Shown: positions 37,991 through 49,049 of the stretch, one piece after another
How the letters are laid out: each line of letters begins with the position of its first letter
Numbering within the stretch: the first letter of the stretch is position 1
From: an uncultured Gemmatimonadaceae bacterium
GTDB taxonomy: Bacteria; Gemmatimonadota; Gemmatimonadetes; Gemmatimonadales; Gemmatimonadaceae
Length of the DNA stretch: 64,000 bases
Direction: 5' to 3'
Assembly (NCBI GenBank): GCA_963829055.1
Contig: CAWHHI010000011.1
Coordinates: forward strand, 480,001 to 544,000
Program-made: the position numbers and the translations under genes
The notes under the pieces: model-generated
Database searches by the model: none
The model's input: only the letters and a program-made list of their open reading frames with translations
What the model was told of the DNA's origin: nothing

Positions 37991-38319
37991 CAACGGCAAC
38001 TGCCGATCACCGCGGAGGACTGCTTCGGTAAGCGTCTCAGACGAAGGGAGCGAGCGGATTCGTCTGATCAGGCGGATCGACTCCTCGAACGTGCAGGGCG
38101 CTACGGCAACGAGCGGAATTGAAGGAGGAACGGCCCCGGACATCGAATGCGATGCCGAGGCCGTTCCCAAAGAATCCCCGCCGCTTGCGTGACCAGCTGT
38201 CCCGGTCGCGATCGGATCAGGCCCTTTCAGTCGTTTCCGGCCTCTTCTCAAAACACCTTCGTTCTGGATGGTTGCCGAAGCAGTCCTCGGCGTCCTCCGT
38301 GAACTTGCTGTTGCCGTTG
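37991..38319. repeat. About 330-bp element with long imperfect terminal inverted repeats (MITE-like)
   Basis: CAACGGCAAC (37991) / GTTGCCGTTG (38310-38319), GAGGACTGCTTCGG / CCGAAGCAGTCCTC, CAGACGAAGG / CCTTCGTTCTG. Confidence 0.55.
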
Positions 38320-38353
38320 TCGTCGCATCGCACGACGCATTGCGGCGCGAGAA

Positions 38354-40795
38354 TCAGTCGCCCCGCAACGCGTCCGTCGGATCCACGTGGGCCGCGCGGC
38401 GTGCAGGCAGATAGCTCGCCGTGAACGCGACCGCCGTCACCAGCACCGTCACACCCACGAACGTGATCGGATCGCTGGCGCCAATGCCGTACAGCAGTCC
38501 GCGCATGGCACGCGTCGCCAGGAACCCAGCGACAATGCCCGAGGTGAGGCCCACCGCCGTCAGACGCATCCCTTCGCCGACGACCATACGCACCACCTGC
38601 GCCTCCTGCGCGCCTAACGCCCGGCGGATGCCGATTTCTCGTGAGCGCTCGGCGACGGCGTACGAGAGAACACCGTAGATCCCGACGGACGCCAGAACGA
38701 GCGCGAGCAACGCGAACGTGACGAGCAGCGCCATCGTGAACCGTCGTTGCGCGACGGAAGCAGCGATGAGCTGCTCCATCGTCGCCACCTCCGCCAGCGG
38801 TGTGCCATGCGCTGCCTCCCGAACGGCGGCGCGAACGCGGAGCCACCAGCGCGAGCGGATCCGTGCGCGCGCGCACGATCAGCGCAATGTCGTCCGAATT
38901 CTGCTGCGTATACGGCACGTACATCTCGGGCTTGGGCGTCACATCGAGCCCGGAATAGCTCACGTCGTCCACCACGCCGACGATCGTGCGCCACTCGTTT
39001 GACCCCGATTGCACGCGACGACCGAGCGCTCGGCCGTCTCCGAAATGCAGCTTGCGCGAACCGGCGATTCACCACGACGACCTTCGGCGACGTCTCGTCG
39101 TCCGAACGCGTTAGGCTCCGGCCCTCACGGACAGGAATACGCAACGTCTCGAAGTACCCCGGCGCGACGATGTAGAAACGCGCCTGCGGTTGCTGCTGGC
39201 CGGCGGGGGTGGGCTTCCCCTCGATCTCCAGACCAAAGAAGTCCTCGCGCTCGCTGAATGGTACGAGCGACGATGCGCTCACCGATGATACTCCAGGCAG
39301 GTGCGAGACGCGCTCGAGCAACGCGCTGTATAGCGCTCGCCGCGACGGCTCGTTCGGGTAGTCGCGTCCCGATGGGCGGAGACTCGCCGTGAGGACGCCG
39401 CGGGGCTCGAATCCTGGGCTCACAGCCATGAGCCGAGCGATGCTCCGCGTGAGCAGGCCAGCGGCGACGAGCAGGACCATCGCCAGGGCAACCTGCGCCA
39501 CGACGAGTCCCGATCGCGCGCGACGAGAGCGCCGATCGCTACTCGATCTGCGACCACCGTCGTTGAGCGCGCGTGCGAGGTCGACGCGCGACGCGCGCAC
39601 CGCCGGGACGATCCCGAACACGAGCCCGGTCAGCACCGACGCGACCATCGCGAACGCGAGCACGCGCGTGTCCACCCCAACGTCTGCGACTCGCGGGAAG
39701 CCCGCGGGCAGCATGCCGCGCAGCGCATCCGTCCCCCAGACGACCACGATCAATCCTAACGCGCCACCAAGGACCGCGAGCACCACACTTTCCGTCAGAG
39801 CCTGTGCGATGATCCTGCCGCGACCGGCGCCGAGCGCGGCGCGTACGGTGACCTCACGCTGCCGCCTGGTGGCACGCGCGAGCTGAAGGTTCGCGACGTT
39901 CGCACACGCGATGAGCAGCACGAGCGCGACCGCACCGAGAAGCGTGAGCAGCGCGGGCCGCACGGGAGCCGCGATCTGTTCAGGGAGCGGAATGATGGTC
40001 GACGTCCAGCCGACGTTGCTCGCTGGAAATGCCTGAGCCATGCGCCGCGACGTCTCGGTCGCTGCCGCACGAGCCTGAGACAGCGCCACCCCATCCCGGA
40101 GCCGCGCGATCACACCGAGGTATCGCCCGTCGCGCCTCGGATAGGCGGGGTCGATCACGTGCGGCACCCAGAATTCCGGTCTTCACTTTCGTGAGGATCG
40201 GGTACATCGACGGCAGCGGGAAGCGGAACGACTCGGGCATGACGCCGACGACCGTGAGCCGCTCGCCGTCGATCTCGACCGGCTTTCCGAGAATGTCGGT
40301 GGCGCCGCCGAAGCGTCGCTGCCAGAGGTCGTGCGACAGCAACACCACACCGGGCCGACCCGGCTGCTCCTCCTGCGGGGTGAAGCCGCGGCCGACAACG
40401 GGCCGGACGCCGAGCGTCGTCAGCAGCGACGGCGTGAGCTCCGCGCCCCAGAGCTGCTCCGCATCGCCGTCGCCGCCGAACGTCGACGACCGATAGCGAA
40501 ACGCACCGGCGTCGCTGAACACAGCGCGGTCCGCCCGGTAGTCGGTGAAGTTGCCGGGCGACGTCGGGATGTGCGTCACCCCGAAGTCCATCGCCGGATT
40601 GTCTTCCCAGATCATGACCAGACGATCCGGCGCCTGGTACGGCAGCGGCCGCAGGATGACGCCGTTCACGACGCTGAAGATGGCCGTGTTGGCGCCGATA
40701 CCTAACGCGAGCGTGATCACCACGGCGGCGGTGAACGTCGGGGCTCGCCGCAACGAGCGGAGCGTCGCGCGGAGATCGTGCAACAGCGAATCCAT
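38354..40795 (-). CDS. ABC permease, ADOP/MacB-like duplicated permease (several frameshifts)
   Basis: TLALGIGANTAIFSVVNGVILRPLPY, LLIACANVANLQLARA, RAALGAGRGR, GIYGVLSY..REIGIRRALGA, YLPARRAAHVDP. Confidence 0.9.
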
Positions 40796-40971
40796 GGGGT
40801 GTGCTCTCGATTGTGGCAGCCACGCCCAAGGGAAGATGCATGCCTCGTTGATGAAGTCGGCAACCCGTTGTCCCACAGCGGCTTGCGACTGAGACACGGG
40901 CGGTCGCTTTGATCGTTTCCGAACAGGTCATCCCACTGCCGAACAGAGGACCGATCCTTGCGCGACGCGCG

Positions 40972-41481
40972 ATGCACATTGGCGTCGTCGCTAACTTCAC
41001 CGGTCCCTCCAACGTGTCTCCCGACGGTCGATCGAGCTCCGGCAATACTCGCGTCCTCATCATTGCGACCGACCCAATGGTCGCTGCACTCGTCGGGCTC
41101 CTGCTCGACCCCGACCGATACGACCCGCTGTTTCCGCACGCCGAAGAACGGCCAGAAGACGCACTCGCGCGCGTCAGGCCACCGCTGGTGCTCGTGCTGG
41201 ACTGCGACCTGGACGCCGCCCACTCCGACCTGTTTTACGCACGCACCGCGAAGACACGAGCGACTGTTGTCCTGTTCGGACCACCAGGCAGTCGCGACAC
41301 CGTCGTCGAGCTCGCGCAGCTCCGAGGCGTCCCGTACGTGTACCTCCCTACCGACCGCGCGGCGCTCACGGAAGCGATTCAGACAGCCATCGTGCACGCG
41401 ATGAGCGCCGGTGTCTGGAGTATTGCGGCTCCGTTTTTCCTGGGCGCGCTCGCATTCTCGAGGCTCGTGGCCGCGTCCTGA
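40972..41481 (+). CDS. Hypothetical protein, degenerate receiver-like domain with hydrophobic C-terminal tail
   Basis: RVLIIATD..., RPPLVLVLDCD, TVVLFG, YLPTDRAAL resemble REC secondary-structure pattern. Confidence 0.5.
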   Translation: MHIGVVANFTGPSNVSPDGRSSSGNTRVLIIATDPMVAALVGLLLDPDRYDPLFPHAEERPEDALARVRPPLVLVLDCDLDAAHSDLFYARTAKTRATVVLFGPPGSRDTVVELAQLRGVPYVYLPTDRAALTEAIQTAIVHAMSAGVWSIAAPFFLGALAFSRLVAAS

Positions 41482-41554
41482 TTCATTGTCTCGGCCGCGC
41501 ACTGCCAGCAGCGCTTGGCGTCGCCGCGCCTCTCCGCCACATCCTTTGTCACAT

Positions 41555-42595
41555 ATGACACCGGTGACACTCGCCGCGCCTCGCGACGACGATGAGCTCG
41601 AGGAACTCCTCTCGCGCCCGGCGCCGGCCGTCATCGACGCACTGCGTCGCGCGCCCGGTGACGTCATCATCCTCGGCGCCGGCGGCAAGATGGGACCGTC
41701 GCTCGCCACGATGGTACGACGCGCGGCCGACGCCCTCGATGACGGTCGAGACGTCACTGCCGTCTCTCGCTTCTCATCGCCTGACGCGGCTACGCGGCTC
41801 GAGCACGCAGGCATCCGCGTCGTGCGAGCCGAGCTCGGCGATCGTGACGCCATCGCGCGCCTGCCTGACGCGGCGAACGTCATCTACATGGCGGGGCAGA
41901 AATTCGGGACGCGTGATCTGCCGTCGCTCACGTGGGCGGTGAACACGCTCGTGCCCGCAATGGTCGCCGAGCGCTATGCATCGTCACGCATCGTCGCGTT
42001 TTCCACGGGGAACGTGTACCCGCTATCGCCGGCCAGCGGCACGGGGTCGCGCGAAAGCGACGCACTCACGCCCGTCGGTGAATACGCGAACTCGTGCGTC
42101 GGACGCGAGCGCGTCCTCGAGCACATATCGCGCACGCGCGGAACACCGATGTCGATCATTCGACTCAATTACGCGGTCGACCTGCGCTACGGCGTGCTCG
42201 TGGACATTGCGCAGCACATAGCCGCCGGTGAGCCCGTGCGGGTCGACATGGGATACGTGAACGTGATCTGGCAGGGTGATGCGAATGCGCAGGCCATCCG
42301 CGCCCTCGAGCTCGCCGCCTCGCCGCCGTTCGTGGTGAACGTCACCGGACCCGAACGACTCTCGGTTCGCGAAACCGCCGCGAAGCTCGGTGCGCTGCTC
42401 GGTGTTACTCCGCGCACCGAGGGCACCGAGGCGCCAGACGCGCTGCTCAGTGACACGTCGCTCGCGCAATCGCGCTTCGGACCGCCCGACGTCTCGACGG
42501 ACCAGCTCATCGAGTGGGTCGCCTCATGGGTCGCGCGCGGCGGAACTCGACTGGGCAAGGCGACGAAGTTCGAGGTGCGCGATGGTCGCTACTAA
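41555..42595 (+). CDS. NAD-dependent epimerase/dehydratase family protein
   Basis: GAGGKMG, MAGQKFG, FSTGNVYP, EYANSCVGRER, RLNYAVDLRYG. Confidence 0.88.
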   Translation: MTPVTLAAPRDDDELEELLSRPAPAVIDALRRAPGDVIILGAGGKMGPSLATMVRRAADALDDGRDVTAVSRFSSPDAATRLEHAGIRVVRAELGDRDAIARLPDAANVIYMAGQKFGTRDLPSLTWAVNTLVPAMVAERYASSRIVAFSTGNVYPLSPASGTGSRESDALTPVGEYANSCVGRERVLEHISRTRGTPMSIIRLNYAVDLRYGVLVDIAQHIAAGEPVRVDMGYVNVIWQGDANAQAIRALELAASPPFVVNVTGPERLSVRETAAKLGALLGVTPRTEGTEAPDALLSDTSLAQSRFGPPDVSTDQLIEWVASWVARGGTRLGKATKFEVRDGRY

Positions 42596-43676
42596 CGGTC
42601 GCCTCGAAACGCTGACGGCACTCCAGGCGATCCGCTCCGGCTGCGTCATCCCGGCGCACCCACTCGCGCTCACGGAGGATCGCAAGCTCGACGAGCGCCA
42701 TCAACGCGCGCTGACTCGGTACTATGTCGCCGCCGGCGCGGGCGGCATCGCCGTCGGCGTGCACACGACGCAGTTCGCCATCCGTGAGGCGAAGCACAGC
42801 CTGCTCCGTCCGGTCCTCGAGCTCGCGGCGACGACTGCGCGAGGCGCATTGCCCAGGCTTGGCGGCTCGCTCGACGCTCCGCGCCTCGCTCCATTCGCGC
42901 TCGTCGCCGGCGTCTGTGGTCCCACTCGTCAGGCGGTCGCCGAGGCAGAGCTCGCGAATTCGTTAGGCTACCACGCCGGTCTCCTCAGCCTCGCCGCCAT
43001 GCGCGGCTCGGAGCCCGCGGCGATCATCGCTCACTGCCGAGCGATCGCCGACGTCATGCCGCTCGTCGGCTTCTACCTGCAACCGGCGGTCGGCGGCATC
43101 CCGCTGGGCTACGCGTTCTGGCGAGAGTTCGCCGAGATCCCGAACGTCGTCGCCGTGAAGGTCGCGCCGTTCGACCGCTATCGAACGATCGATGTCGTCC
43201 GAGCCGTGAGCGACGCCGGCCGGACCGATATCGCGCTCTACACCGGCAACGACGACAACATCGTCGGGGATCTCGTAACGCCGTTCCCATTCGGCCAGGA
43301 CGGAGCGCCTCGTCGCTTCGTCGGCGGCTTGTTCGGCCAGTGGGCGGTGTGGACGCGTCGCGCCGTCGAGTTGCTCGATCAGGCGCGCGCAGCGAGCGAG
43401 ACCGATCACGTCCCGGCAGACTTGCTTCGCGTGGGCGCGGCACTCACCGACGCGAATGCCGCGGTGTTCGACGTGCGACACGCGTTCGCGGGCTGCATCG
43501 CGGGCATCCACGAGGTGCTGCGCCGGCAGGGACTCATGCGGGGCATCTGGTGCCTCGATCCGGCGGAAGGTCTCTCGCCGGGCCAGTCGGCGGAGATCGA
43601 CCGCGTGACGCGGTCTTACCCCGACCTCACCGACGACGAGTTCGTCGCCGCGCACCTGGACAGCTGGCTCGCCTAA
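42582..43676 (+). CDS. Dihydrodipicolinate synthase family aldolase
   Basis: VIPAHPLAL, GVHTTQF, FYLQPAVGG, KVAPFDRY (Schiff-base Lys), YTGNDD. Confidence 0.88.
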   Translation: MVATNGRLETLTALQAIRSGCVIPAHPLALTEDRKLDERHQRALTRYYVAAGAGGIAVGVHTTQFAIREAKHSLLRPVLELAATTARGALPRLGGSLDAPRLAPFALVAGVCGPTRQAVAEAELANSLGYHAGLLSLAAMRGSEPAAIIAHCRAIADVMPLVGFYLQPAVGGIPLGYAFWREFAEIPNVVAVKVAPFDRYRTIDVVRAVSDAGRTDIALYTGNDDNIVGDLVTPFPFGQDGAPRRFVGGLFGQWAVWTRRAVELLDQARAASETDHVPADLLRVGAALTDANAAVFDVRHAFAGCIAGIHEVLRRQGLMRGIWCLDPAEGLSPGQSAEIDRVTRSYPDLTDDEFVAAHLDSWLA

Positions 43677-43684
43677 CGCGTTGT

Positions 43685-43807
43685 GTCATTCCGAGCGGAG
43701 CGACGAAGGGCGGAGTCGAGGAATCGCGATCGTCCGCGCCCAGAGGGCCCTCTACCCGGACGATCGCGATTCCTCGACTCGCGCCTCGGCGCTCCGCTCG
43801 GAATGAC
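43685..43807. repeat. REP-like palindromic element, family A, between convergent genes
   Basis: GTCATTCCGAGCGGAGCG / CGCTCCGCTCGGAATGAC termini and GAGTCGAGGAATCGCGATCGTCC / GGACGATCGCGATTCCTCGACTC inner arms. Confidence 0.85.
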
Positions 43808-43821
43808 CGGGGCTTTGCGTC

Positions 43822-44316
43822 TTACCGGCTGACGAGCTGCGCGTGCCACGAGTCGCGCATCGGCCGCTCGAACTCCTGCCGCCACGCCGACGCCGACGTG
43901 ATCGCCGTATCGAACACCGGCGTATCCGGCCCGATGCGTCCGTCGGCCACGAGCTGATTGAACGCATTCCGCGTCGTCACGTTGACGCGCCCGTCCGCAT
44001 CACGATAGTACACGCGGCCGCCACCGAGCATCGTCGTTCCGAGCACCGGCTCGAGCCGCGCGAGCGTGCGGAACAATCCGTCGATCGAGCACCCCGACGC
44101 GCCAGCCGTCGACTGATCGACACCGATCGCGAGGAAGCGGTCGTCGCGCCACTCACGTGCGCACGCGAGCGGAGCGCCGTGGGCGTTCCACTGCGCGAGA
44201 AAATCATCGACGGCGCTCAGAAGCTGCTCCGTTGCCGCCGGAGACGGTTCGGCCGCCGCGCCGAACACCCAGACGCGTGCGTCGTCGGGAAGCGAATCGA
44301 AAGACACTCGAGGCAT
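43822..44316 (-). CDS. Conserved hypothetical protein
   Basis: FDSLPDDARVWVF, WNAHGAPL, ASGCSID, TPVFD, SWH motifs; typical codon usage. Confidence 0.75.
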   Translation of the reverse strand: MPRVSFDSLPDDARVWVFGAAAEPSPAATEQLLSAVDDFLAQWNAHGAPLACAREWRDDRFLAIGVDQSTAGASGCSIDGLFRTLARLEPVLGTTMLGGGRVYYRDADGRVNVTTRNAFNQLVADGRIGPDTPVFDTAITSASAWRQEFERPMRDSWHAQLVSR

Positions 44317-44497: not shown

Positions 44498-45764
44498 GTG
44501 GCCGCACTCCATACCGCCGTCGCTGCGCCTGTTCGGCAGCGCTCCACTCGAGGCGACCGGGACGTCCGTCGAGCAATTCCTGCTTCTTCTCGCGGTCATC
44601 CTCGTTGCCGCGAAAGTGCTCGGTGAGCTCGCGGAGCGCATCGGTCAGCCGGCCGTCGTTGGAGAGCTCCTCGCCGGTGTGATTCTCGGCCCGTCTATCC
44701 TGGGCTTCGTCGACCCCACGCTCCCGTCGCTCCACCTGCTCGCTGAGATCGGCGTCGTGCTGCTGCTCTTCGGCATCGGCCTCGAGACAGATCTGAAGCG
44801 ACTCATGAGCGTCGGCGGCGCTGCATTCACCGTCGCGGTCGTCGGCGTGGTCCTGCCATTCGCGGCGGGATTCGGTGTCGCGCGCGGGCTCGGCCTCGAA
44901 CTACTTCCTGCCATCGTCGCCGGCGCGGCGCTCACGGCGACGTCGGTCGGTATCACCGCGCGCGTGCTCTCCGACCTCGGTCAGCTCAAGAGCGTCGAAG
45001 GCCAGATCGTACTCGGCGCCGCCGTCATCGATGACGTTATCGGCCTCGTGATCCTGGCCGTCGTCAGCGACCTCGTCGCAGGGAACGCACCGAGCGTGCT
45101 CGGAGTGCTGCGCACCACGGGCATCGCGTTCGGCTTTCTCGCGGCGGCGCTGCTGCTCGGCCGCGTCATCGTGCCCCCGCTGTTCTCACTCGTAGCACGC
45201 ACGGGGAAGGAACACACACTCGCGTCGATGGCCCTCGCACTCGCGTTTCTGCTCGCGGTGGCAGCCTCCGAAATCGGCTCGGCGCTCATCGTCGGCGCGT
45301 TCGCGGCGGGGCTCGTGCTCGCGCCAACAGAGCATGTGCACGTCATCGAGCGCGGCATCATCCGGCTCGCGAACGTGTTCGTGCCCATCTTCTTCGTCGC
45401 TGTCGGCGCGGCGGTCGACGTGCGCACGTTCGGGTCGCGCGACGTCCTCATTGTCGGGTTCGCACTCACGGCCGTGGCGATCGTTGGAAAGTTCGCGGCC
45501 GGATTCGCGCCCGTATGGATCAAGGCGAACAAGACGCTCATCGGCGTCGGCATGATCCCACGCGGTGAGGTCGGCCTGATCTTCGCGCAGACCGGGTTGA
45601 CTGCCGGCGTGATCGACGCGGGCGAGTACAGCGCGCTCATGCTCATGGTGCTCGTGACCACGTTCATCGCGCCCCCACTGCTCCGCCAGCTCATCTCGAA
45701 GATGGCCGGCGCGACGCGTGATACCGACATTGGCGCGGTCGGCGAGATGACCACGGAAGCCTGA
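44498..45764 (+). CDS. Cation:proton antiporter, CPA2 (KefB/NapA-like); start uncertain
   Basis: GQPAVVGELLAGVILGP, LFGIGLE, ATSVGIT, AAVIDDV, PIFFVAVG, GMIPRGEV. Confidence 0.9.
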
Positions 45765-45799
45765 CCTGGTCCGCTGGTATCCACCTAGTATTCACCGCC

Positions 45800-47599
45800 A
45801 TGATCGCAGAGTCCTTCACCGCGACCATCGCACTCATCGGTATCGTCATTCTCGTCGCGTCGCTGCTGTCGGGCGCCGTCGAGCGGACTGGCATGCCGCA
45901 GGTCGCGATCTTTCTCCTCCTCGGCGCCGTACTCGGCCCGATCGGGCTGAACCTCTTCGACCTCGCCCTGGATTCGCCCGCGCTCCACGCGATCGCGACG
46001 CTCGCGCTCGTGCTGGTGCTGTTCAGTGACGCGATCTCCATCGACCTGCGAGAAGTCAAACGCAATTCCCGCCTCGCGCTGCTCGTGCTCGGACCGGGGT
46101 CGCTCATTCCAGCAGTGCTCATCGCCGTCGCGTCCCGGTACCTGCTCGGCCTCCACTGGGCGGCATCCGCGATCGTCGGCGCCGCACTCGCGTCAACCGA
46201 TCCCGTCCTGCTTCGCGGGCTGCTGCGCCGGCAGGACGTGCCTGCGCAGGCACGGCTCGCGCTGCGGCTCGAGAGCGGGATGAACGACGTGGTGCTGCTG
46301 CCCATCGTCGTGTTGAGCATGCTGTTCCTTCCTGGCCTGCCTGCTGGCGTGCATCCAAGCGCAGCCCGGCTCGCACTCGGGCTCCTCATCCTCGGACCGG
46401 GCGCAGGCGTGTTGGCCGGGCTGGTGGGCATCACGCTGCTGGATCGTATTCGCAAGAGCGTCGGCGTCCGACGAGACTACGAATCGCTGTACGCACTCGG
46501 CGTCGCGTTCACGGCGTTCGCCGCCGCCGAGGCGGCAGGTGGCAGCGGATTTCTCGCGGCGTTCGCGGCAGGAATCACCGTTGCTGCTCTCGACGTGGAG
46601 CTGTGTGACTGCTTCCTGGATTACGGCGAAGCAACGGCGGAAATGTTCCTGCTGCTCACGTTCGTGGCGTTCGGCGCGTCGCTGATCTGGCAGGGGCTCA
46701 GCATCGTGAGCTTGCGGAGCCTGACGTTCGCGTTCTTCGCGCTCATCATCCGCACCCTCGTGCTGTTCCCGGTGCTGAAGCGCGCCGGCCTGGATCGGCG
46801 GAGTCTGCGCATTGTGGCGTGGGTCGGCCCGCGTGGACTCAGCACGCTGTTGCTGGTCCTGCTCCCGGTGTTCGCCGGCATCCCAGATAGCGCACAATTG
46901 TTCACGATCTGCTGCCTCGTCGTGCTCCTGTCCGTGCTTCTGCACGGCAGCGCGATCGGCCTGATCGTGCGTCGGCCTCAGCCCGCGCCGGGCGCGGCCA
47001 TCAATCCTGCTTCCGCGTTAGGTGCATTGGCGCCGGGCGCGCCGCCACTGGCAGCGAAAGCCCCGACGCCAGCGCTCGAGGTTATCCCGCCACTCGCGAC
47101 AGAGGCGGCGCTCGCGGCAAAGCCGGCAACCGAGACACGGGATGCGGTCGCGGCGAAACCAGCGCTCGACGGAACACCGCAGGACACCGCCGCTGAGCAG
47201 GCCGAGCCGCCGATCCCCGAGAAGATCACCATCGACGAGATGCAGGCGATGCAGAGCGCCGGCGAGACGCCACTGGTGCTCGACGTTCGGACGCAACGCA
47301 CCTACGAAGCCGATCCGTTCATTGCGCGTGGCGCGGTGCGCTTACCGCCCTTGGATGCGGTGCGCCTCGCGACGGCGCACCGCATCCCGTGGAAGGCGAC
47401 GCTCGTCGCCTACTGTGCCTGAAAGAACGAAGAGACAAGCACCCGTGTGGTGCGAGAGCTGAGACGAGCCGGTTGGAAGCGAGCCCGCGCCCTCAAGGGC
47501 GGGTGGGCCGAGTGGCGTGCGCGCAACCTGCCGGTCGACCCGGCGGAGCCTAACGAGTTGGAGCCTCAGTCGCCCTCGGCGCGACCGAACATCAGGTGA
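45800..47599 (+). CDS. NhaP-type (CPA1) cation:proton antiporter fused to a C-terminal rhodanese domain; predicted Sec at TGA 47420-47422
   Basis: LFSDA, ASTDPV, ESGMND, GPRGLST; linker; LDVRTQRTY...ARGAVRL...VAYCA-TGA-KNEETSTRVVRELRRAGWKRARALKGGWAEWRARNLPVD, next stop at 47597-47599. Confidence 0.8.
47439..47453 (+). promoter_or_regulatory. Candidate bacterial SECIS apical hairpin
   Basis: GCACC-CGTGT-GGTGC; 5-nt loop starts 21 nt after the TGA, with G at loop position 2 followed by T. Confidence 0.5.
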
Positions 47600-49049
47600 A
47601 TCAATGGTCGGTCCTCCGTGCGGGCGAACACGTACACGTGGTCGCCCGCCGTGATCGTCGTGTCTCCCTTCGGCGGCACGACGTCCTGCCCGCGGACGAT
47701 CAATGCCACCGACGCACCGTCGGGAAACGGGAGATCGGCCAGGGACACGCCGGCGACGGCAAGCGCCTCGTCGACGTAGAACGACATCAGCTCGCCGTTG
47801 AGCGGCTGCATGGACTCGATCTCCAGCACCGCCGGCGGAGCAGGCGCTTCATTCGTGCCGAGGCCGAGTCGTCGCGTTACCCAGCCGACGGTCGTTCCCG
47901 GTACCAGCGCGTTGATGACGACGATGAAGAACACGACGTCGAAGATGCGCAGCGAGCCCGGCGCACCCGCCAGCACGGGGATCGTCGCGAGAATGATCGG
48001 CACGGCCCCGCGAAGTCCGACCCATCCGATGTACGCGACTTCCCGCGCGCGATACCCGAATGGGAGGAGACACAGCCAGACGACGAGAGGCCGCGCGACT
48101 ACGGCAAGAAACAGCGCGAGCGCGAGCCCAATGCCGGCGACGTCGAACAGCCGTGACGGAAACACCAGCAATCCGAGCACGAGGAACATCACCACTTGCC
48201 CGAGCCACGCGAGCGCGTGGTGTACGCGGAGCAACCCGGCGCGGTACGGCAGCGGGCCGTTGCCGAGAATCAGCCCCGTGACGTACACCGAGAGGAAGCC
48301 GCTGCCGTGCAGGATCGTCGGCACGCCGAACGCGAGGAATGCGATCGCCGAGCGTGAGCGCCGGATAGAGTCCTCCGCCCGGCAACTTGACGCGCCGCAA
48401 CAACGCACGACCGCCGTATCCGAACGCCACGCCAAGCGCGCCGCCGACGACCATCTCGACGACGAACTCGAGCGGCAGATTCCAGTACGATGCGTGACCG
48501 CCGCTCGCGAGTTGCGCGGTCAACGCGGTCGTCAGCATCACGGCGACGGGATCGTTGATGCCTGATTCGACCTCGAGCGTGACGCCGACGCGCCGCTTGA
48601 GGTGAAGGCCGCTTCCACGCAGAACGGAGAACACCGCGGCGGCGTCTGTGGACGACACGACCGCGCCAAGAACGAGCGCCTCCGTCCACGAGAAGCCGAG
48701 CACGTGGCCCGCCGAGCGCAATGAGCGCGGTGGTGCCTAACACACCGACCGTGGCCAGCACTCCCGCCGGCTTTGCCGTCTCGCGCACGGCATCCATCGG
48801 CGTGTGCAGACCGCCGTCGAACAGGATGAGCACGAGCGCGACGGTGCCGAGCCGGAACGCGACCGCGTAATTCTCGAACGCGATGCCGCCGATGCCCTCG
48901 GAGCCGGCGAGCACGCCGATGAGCAGGAATGCCAGGGCTACCGGGACCGCGAAGCGTTCCGCGGCCCGGCTGAAGATGATGCTCAGCGCCAGCAGGACGC
49001 CGAACGTCGTGAGGAGGAGCGCGGTCGCCAGCGGCTCGGTGCCAGTCAC
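47566..49049 (-). CDS. cvrA: K+/H+ antiporter NhaP2/CvrA-like with TrkA-C domain (frameshifts near 48712 and 48345)
   Basis: AGSEGIGGI, ILFDGG, SSTDAAAVFSVLR, ESGINDP, GSGFLSVY, WVGLRGAVPIILA, PKGDTTITAGDHV. Confidence 0.88.

Follow-up and report, generated by a model that had tools for sequence, protein, structure and literature searches.

A stretch of 64,000 nucleotides (nt) from an uncultured Gemmatimonadaceae bacterium (assembly GCA_963829055.1, contig CAWHHI010000011.1), here called the window, was analysed for a candidate selenoprotein gene on its plus strand. The gene (45800-47599) would encode one protein of 599 residues, an NhaP-type cation/proton antiporter (CPA) with a rhodanese domain at its C-terminus, in which UGA codon 541 is decoded as selenocysteine (Sec) by way of SelA, SelB, SelD, tRNA-Sec and a hairpin behind the codon. 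We assign this reading a probability of about 0.88. At the sequence level, the gene carries what selenoproteins are recognised by: a conserved in-frame UGA, homologues with cysteine (Cys) instead, a stem-loop 3' of the codon and all four Sec genes in the same genome. The coordinates of the features are collected in Table 1.

The open reading frame (ORF) 45800-47422 (plus strand) begins at ATG 45800 and ends after 540 amino acids with ...LVAYCA at TGA 47420-47422. Past this codon the same frame continues without a stop for a further 58 codons (KNEETSTRVVRELRRAGW...GGWAEW...LPVD...) up to TGA 47597-47599. The read-through protein was compared with the Pfam profiles. Na_H_Exchanger (PF00999) matched residues 20-391 with 146 bits and covered positions 3-374 of its 375, and Rhodanese (PF00581) matched residues 478-574 (E 4e-8, 34 bits vs a cut-off of 22.2). 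The latter match crosses the TGA. The best NCBIfam domain match was NF041203 (rhodanese_LYCAU; residues 475-580, 81 bits, E 5.5e-23). The K+/H+ antiporter equivalogs (NF003716 and relatives) scored 147.6 bits, below their cut-off of 355. The motif reads VAYCAU in the window gene and LYCAU in most orthologues.

An earlier reading of the same letters, the original prediction, had described an ORF that stops in the middle of a rhodanese fold and goes on in the same frame to 47597, and a GCACC-CGTGT-GGTGC hairpin with its loop beginning 21 nt behind the TGA. From these it had proposed an antiporter of about 599 amino acids with Sec541. The coordinates of the frame and of the hairpin (47439-47453) were confirmed. 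The antiporter with Sec541 is now supported by the conserved TGA, the alternation with Cys, the covarying hairpin and the Sec machinery.

Conservation of the in-frame TGA

The source genome was compared together with 40 relatives (41 genomes; the tallies include G013). A fused orthologue was present in six of the 41 (G000, G005, G009, G019, G031 and G033). One TGA lay within the match to the rhodanese part in every case, and the translated loci had Y-C-A-U at the same column followed by conserved downstream sequence. Each of these six genomes also has selA, and the eight genomes that gave no selA match all lack the TGA form. Weak TGA-bearing rhodanese matches in G017 and G019:C221 were rejected for having no C-x-U site; the TGA in G017 is an ordinary stop after the domain.

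A scan of public genomes was carried out with one genome per species, and the best 80 of 212 relatives were kept. At the aligned column, 69 of these 80 loci have TGA, six have TGC and four have TGT. The remaining locus (L110) did not align, and a frameshift is the probable cause. Where an aligned locus does not have TGA, the residue is always Cys (10/10); the original prediction had proposed to look for just this alternation. Most TGA forms among the best 80 loci belong to metagenome-assembled genomes labelled Gemmatimonadales or Gemmatimonadaceae. The other labels are Chloroflexota, Bryobacterales/Bryobacteraceae, Terriglobales, Acidobacteriota and Kofleriaceae, so that Myxococcota are represented and four phyla are covered in all. 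In five loci (L102, L104, L121, L124 and L129) the Sec/Cys codon is out of frame with the beginning of the match, which suggests assembly frameshifts.

A different picture is given by the protein collection. Among the best 120 relatives, 104 cover exactly 90% of the query and terminate at the UGA; they are annotated as, for instance, "NhaP-type antiporter" or "cation:proton antiporter". Only P0103, P0115 and P0117 pass the column, and they have C-x-C there. Public gene callers accordingly annotate the TGA as a true stop. In that case the antiporter would comprise 540 residues and end in a truncated rhodanese stub, with a decaying remnant or a separate small ORF (GTG 47447) downstream. Against this stands the codon pattern in 70 aligned sequences. 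For the 40 codons that follow the TGA, mean entropy at codon positions 1/2/3 was 0.52/0.44/1.02, with many positions invariant; the 20 preceding codons gave 0.77/0.62/1.37, which is the same period-3 selection on both sides. By this measure the frame after the TGA is under protein-level purifying selection; the original prediction had made its case depend on a conserved downstream frame. Further, 40 of the 111 rhodanese-domain residues lie after the TGA, and without them the fold would lack two helices and two strands. A remnant would also not keep the TGA in 69 loci of four phyla. We therefore give a true stop a scant chance.

A second alternative is that a Cys codon (TGC or TGT) was turned into TGA by a sequencing or assembly error, and the frameshifts in the adjacent gene speak for it. 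This possibility had been raised in the original prediction and was addressed with independent sequence data. Words of 46900-47700 were found in 20 runs of 15 studies among the matches listed, from soil and rhizosphere metagenomes. Run X3 (DNA) yielded a 695-nt contig over 47003-47697, and run X4 (DNA) yielded contigs over 46900-47423, 47394-47458 and 47429-47650. A 151-nt contig from run X15 (RNA library) covers 47333-47483 and is identical to the window. In every covering contig, from two DNA runs and one RNA-library run, 47420-47422 is unchanged. Transcription is suggested by the X15 contig; the contigs as such show presence only. In addition, a 99%-identical database protein from another source (P0002) stops at the same position, and TGA is found in 69 other genomes. 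Since the same letters come from independent contigs of other runs, we consider the chance of an error at this codon negligible.

The codon of the preceding Cys539 is constrained as well. It is TGT in 64 and TGC in six of the 70 sequences (alignment A3), despite G+C-rich genomes. This preference for TGT may reflect a constraint on the sequence context before the UGA.

The probable recoding hairpin and the selenocysteine machinery

The hairpin consists of arms at 47439-47443 and 47449-47453 around a loop (47444-47448) that begins 21 nt past the UGA. For bacterial selenocysteine insertion sequence (SECIS) elements, the bSECIS model gives a distance of 16-37 nt. The hairpin is present in all 70 TGA forms with a loop of the type C-G-K-G-U, and position 2 of the loop is G in 70/70. 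The upper helix of 5 bp, rich in G+C, is paired in nearly all cells of the alignment (Table 1). Its middle pair is G-C in 56 sequences, A-U in 13 and G-U in one, and the changes are compensatory. The exchange between A-U and G-C alters two amino acids jointly, giving T,V in one state and A,A in the other. Both states occur interspersed on the tree of 36 full-length forms described below, with at least three switches by hand count and more if weakly supported forks are included.

The codons that make up the hairpin and its surroundings are frozen in the 70 sequences. Ser +6 is AGC in 70/70, codon +7 ends in CC in 70/70, Val +9 is GTG in 69/70 and codon +10 is G-x-G in 70/70. Synonymous-site entropy is 0-0.83 in codons +3 to +12 vs 1.35-1.73 at invariant residues beyond; at the invariant Ala +16, Gly +17 and Gly +27, third-position entropy amounts to 1.52-1.73. 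The hairpin is lost, with differing letters, in the full-length Cys forms L113 and L124 and in the Cys-type domains L131-L139. From these patterns the hairpin most likely acts as a bacterial SECIS that directs Sec insertion.

Two further searches for RNA structure were made. A long-range pairing that included the UGA was proposed by RNAalifold from six sequences and was gone with 70 sequences. The whole genome was also scanned for hairpins of the same loop type behind a TGA, under a filter of 40 open codons upstream, which excluded selD. Of 24 matches, none but the window gene looked coding.

A maximum-likelihood tree was calculated from 36 full-length forms. The four Cys forms in it are scattered among the Sec forms, and three changes between Sec and Cys are needed, at least two of them forced by well-supported branches. 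Because the same hairpin is found in all Sec forms on either side of the midpoint root, we infer that Sec would be the older state in this sample, on a tree that is midpoint-rooted and has no true root.

The source assembly (7.78 Mb in 20 contigs, 86% complete) was searched for selA, selB, selD and tRNA-Sec, the genes that the original prediction had called for. All four were present and scored above curated cut-offs: selA with 548 bits, selB with 315 bits, selD with 360 bits and tRNA-Sec with 71 bits vs a gathering score of 47. The tRNA-Sec gene lies directly downstream of selD. The selD gene (G000:C16:625106-626214, minus strand; L001, L014) has an in-frame TGA of its own and is itself a selenoprotein gene with the motif C-A-G-U. 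A hairpin with the loop C-G-G-G-C, akin to that of the antiporter gene, begins 16 nt after the UGA of selD.

With these genes in hand, a third alternative can be weighed. The UGA might be read without Sec, either by a near-cognate tRNA (Trp, Cys or Arg) or as a sense codon in a deviant code, and the conserved frame past the TGA would fit any such read-through. This explanation has to contend with the full Sec machinery, with the presence of selA alongside the TGA form in 6/6 genomes, with Cys as the alternative residue in 10/10 non-TGA loci and with a hairpin at SECIS distance that is tied to the TGA forms. Moreover, TGA terminates the window gene and is absent from the interior of selA, selB and the paralogous antiporters, which makes it a normal stop in the source genome. 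Read-through without Sec thus has a slight chance in our estimate.

The rhodanese tail and the membrane domain

The rhodanese domain was modelled from an alignment of 42 sequences. The model has a mean predicted local distance difference test score (pLDDT) of 96.4 and a complete rhodanese fold, with a strand at 535-538, a loop at 539-544 and a helix at 545-556, followed by strand, helix and strand. Its best structural matches are rhodanese-like domains, with a template modelling score (TM-score) of 0.80 for 2kl3 and 0.74 for 6mxv. When the sequence is aligned with 6mxv_A, U541 takes the place of the Cys in the Y-C-G-G-G-F-R-S loop, and Cys539 lies two residues earlier. Therefore, Sec541 would be the catalytic nucleophile and Cys539 an extra invariant residue. 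The original prediction had placed the TGA at a Cys position, and this position can now be refined to that of the canonical catalytic Cys. Residues D495, R497, C539, U/C541, E544, T546 and G558 are invariant in the 42 domains.

An AlphaFold model of the whole protein had a mean pLDDT of 80.4. Helices within residues 3-390 form the membrane domain. The linker has a pLDDT below 50 for residues 397-452 and 457-463, and its length differs between orthologues. The tail is folded confidently in this model, and its position relative to the membrane domain is undefined. In 36 sequences T133-D134-P135 and N162-D163 are invariant, which we take to be the ion-binding motifs of CPA1 antiporters. The motif C269-D270-C271 is likewise invariant in 36/36 fused forms, Sec and Cys both, and is absent in all six paralogous antiporters aligned at that place. 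NhaP proteins with 13 helices have an N-out/C-in topology. The helix count and this topology would put the C-D-C motif on the cytoplasmic side, where the tail could reach it, and the motif may be a partner of the C-x-U tail.

From this anatomy a mechanism can be drawn up. SelB with Sec-tRNA would recognise the small hairpin, and Sec would be inserted at codon 541 to give the 599-residue protein. This protein would be a CPA1/NhaP-type cation/proton antiporter that carries, on a long flexible linker, a cytoplasmic single-domain rhodanese. Through its selenol, the tail could sense or accept oxidants, persulfide or selenium species. In doing so it would form a Se-S bond between Sec541 and Cys539 that may be exchanged with the C-D-C motif, and the state of the tail would regulate ion transport, a role that TrkA-C or KTN tails have in other antiporters. 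Judged by anatomy, the tail may be a switch that regulates the antiporter by selenol/thiol redox chemistry or by accepting persulfide, a tentative idea with chances a little short of even.

Alternatively, the tail of the selenoprotein might be a working sulfur- or selenium-transferase at the membrane, and the membrane domain might be its anchor or the transporter of a linked substrate. In favour of this are the position of Sec at the catalytic nucleophile and the complete rhodanese fold. The same C-x-C/C-x-U domain also occurs on DedA/VTT proteins and alone, like a portable catalytic module, and other Sec-containing transport-associated proteins are listed in the parts of a 2026 review that were available (PMC13188914). 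In contrast, the invariant T-D-P and N-D motifs suggest ordinary ion exchange, and a crude neighbour scan gave no conserved sulfur-carrier partner gene. The active-site loop is C-A-U-K-N-E-E-T-S; it is without what we presume to be the basic residues of thiosulfate sulfurtransferases, and we count this against a transferase. Taken together, we regard a working transferase as less likely than not.

Returning to the regulatory switch, its most far-reaching form would make the window protein the first selenoprotein of the CPA superfamily. A selenol/thiol relay between C-x-U and C-D-C would directly gate cation/proton exchange by redox, persulfide or selenium status, in soil Gemmatimonadota as in other phyla; Sec would be ancestral and dominant and the Cys forms would be later reversions. 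As a whole we regard this as doubtful.

Several points weigh against the selenoprotein and the function drawn for it. Sec insertion and translation past UGA541 are predicted here from sequence. The X15 contig may stem from contaminating DNA. The NF041203 cut-off of 115 bits was missed, with 81 bits for the protein and 77.9 bits for the genome. A single-sequence fold of 47405-47480 (76 nt) was as stable as its shuffles (z 0.47), and thus the hairpin is backed by the comparison with relatives, not by folding energy. The lower 6-bp stem, with 89% of cells paired in 70 sequences, had no covariation and forms three of its six pairs in the source genome. Frameshifts in the adjoining gene make the base-level quality of the assembly imperfect. 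The regulatory switch and the link to the C-D-C motif are drawn from anatomy, with a disordered linker and a model that is silent on docking.

Gene neighbourhood, related systems and significance

The window gene lies between two further antiporter genes, so that 44616-49049 holds three cation/proton antiporter genes in a row. The convergent gene downstream is split over three frames, either by two frameshifts or by assembly indel errors; the match to its counterpart in G005 is free of internal stops.

Table 1. Features of the window gene and its immediate neighbours (positions in the window)
Feature	Position	Strand	Basis
Predicted full gene, 599 codons and TGA stop, Sec at codon 541	45800..47599	+	Full-length orthologues share the in-frame TGA
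CPA1/NhaP-type membrane domain, residues 20-391, about 13 helices	45857..46972	+	Pfam PF00999, E 1.4e-42
C269-D270-C271 motif (TGT GAC TGC), start of helix 266-298	46604..46612	+	36/36 fused forms
Ala/Pro-rich linker, residues 397-463, variable in length, predicted disordered	46988..47188	+	Low pLDDT; alignment gaps (A1, A5)
Rhodanese domain, residues 471-581	47210..47542	+	Pfam PF00581; NF041203, 81 bits; model; TM-score 0.80
Cys539 codon TGT, C of C-x-U	47414..47416	+	Invariant in 70/70 sequences; two residues before the 6mxv catalytic Cys
TGA, predicted Sec541, catalytic Cys position of the rhodanese loop	47420..47422	+	69/80 loci TGA, 10 Cys codons; 6mxv_A alignment; independent contigs
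Possible lower stem (47428-47433 with 47458-47463) and frozen synonymous zone	47428..47463	+	89% paired, 70 sequences; 3/6 pairs here
SECIS-like upper hairpin, 5 bp GCACC/GGUGC, loop CGUGU	47439..47453	+	99.7% paired cells in 70 sequences
True stop codon TGA	47597..47599	+	End of the read-through frame
Second cation/proton antiporter, 382 amino acids, upstream	44616..45764	+	Pfam PF00999, E 4.3e-64
Convergent antiporter with TrkA-C domain, split over three frames	47566..49049	-	Three ORFs: profile positions 4-91, 98-202 and 215-374 with TrkA_C

Antiporter genes also surround the orthologues. In G005, from the same genus, the orthologue shares its contig with two flanking matches to further antiporter genes; the one on the far side has no internal stop. 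In G033 and G031, a divergent antiporter gene adjoins the orthologue. At other loci, four of the 16 upstream ORFs tested were antiporters, three of them with a TrkA-C domain. The neighbour survey of these other loci found no conserved redox or sulfur(-carrier) partner gene; it was crude, as the longest flanking ORF is often no real gene and 19 of 30 had no Pfam match. Elsewhere in the window, 38217-43957 holds several long ORFs that overlap others of their own strand, for example on the minus strand at 39980-40897, 40155-41063 and 40717-41883 and on the plus strand at 41411-42595 and 42390-43676. These may be further assembly frameshifts.

Rhodanese-like selenoproteins had been mentioned in the original prediction, and the C-x-U type is indeed catalogued, as NF041203. 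In the available parts of PMC13188914, rhodanese-like selenoprotein form 3, with C-x-U, is given as a predicted selenoprotein. A 2022 review (PMC9312934) lists the C-x-U rhodanese, in the parts available, as "COG0607 form 2", again a predicted selenoprotein. NF041203 (rhodanese_LYCAU) is the same domain type as the window tail and has Sec at the same position (Y-C-A-U). In contrast to the window domain, which is the C-terminal tail of a 599-residue antiporter, the family is stand-alone, with a profile of about 126 positions. The window protein works like this family but is not a member of it as the family is defined. The available parts of the two reviews mention no antiporter or exchanger, and those of PMC13188914 mention no Gemmatimonad and list Sec-containing transport proteins without a CPA member. 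No description of an antiporter-rhodanese Sec fusion was found in the open full-text literature; subscription journals and the supplementary tables of selenoproteome studies lay outside this search. The C-x-U rhodanese selenoprotein is hence already known, and only its fusion to an antiporter appears to be undescribed.

Among the closest systems are the Cys forms of the same fusion (P0103, P0115, P0117 and L113). They share the architecture and the C-D-C motif at 51-55% identity and carry the automatic name 'NhaP-type Na+/H+ or K+/H+ antiporter/rhodanese-related sulfurtransferase'. In contrast to the window gene, the Cys-form fusions have C-x-C instead of C-x-U; L113 and L124 are without the hairpin and P0117 has two rhodanese domains.

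The original prediction had also pointed to DedA-rhodanese fusions with YCxCPNE at this site. Two such loci were found (L133 2389-3333, plus strand; L136 2398-3330, plus strand), with VTT/DedA and Rhodanese domains and the sequence YCACPNEAT. They come from Nitrospirales and Burkholderiales. Their loop is of the same type and is tethered to the membrane, but the membrane partner is another one (PF09335), the residue is Cys and not Sec, and the identity of 34-40% extends over the tail alone. Since this loop type occurs on DedA/VTT proteins too, it would be a recurrent tail on membrane proteins. Finally, NhaP2-type CPA1 antiporters with TrkA-C, one of which adjoins the window gene, have the same Na_H_Exchanger domain followed by a cytoplasmic C-terminal accessory domain. 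Their tail is of the nucleotide-binding type and not a rhodanese, and they have neither Sec nor C-D-C.

For this widespread transporter family of soil bacteria, public gene calls truncate the proteins at the UGA, about 59 residues short. Selenoproteome counts would therefore be too low in soil Gemmatimonadota, Acidobacteriota, Chloroflexota and Myxococcota. With this fusion, the few transport proteins known to contain Sec would be joined by a secondary ion transporter. The Sec and Cys forms of the fusion would be a natural pair for asking what benefit selenium brings to a rhodanese active site. The hairpin, very small, conserved and forcing two amino acids to co-vary, would offer a clean case for models of the bacterial SECIS.

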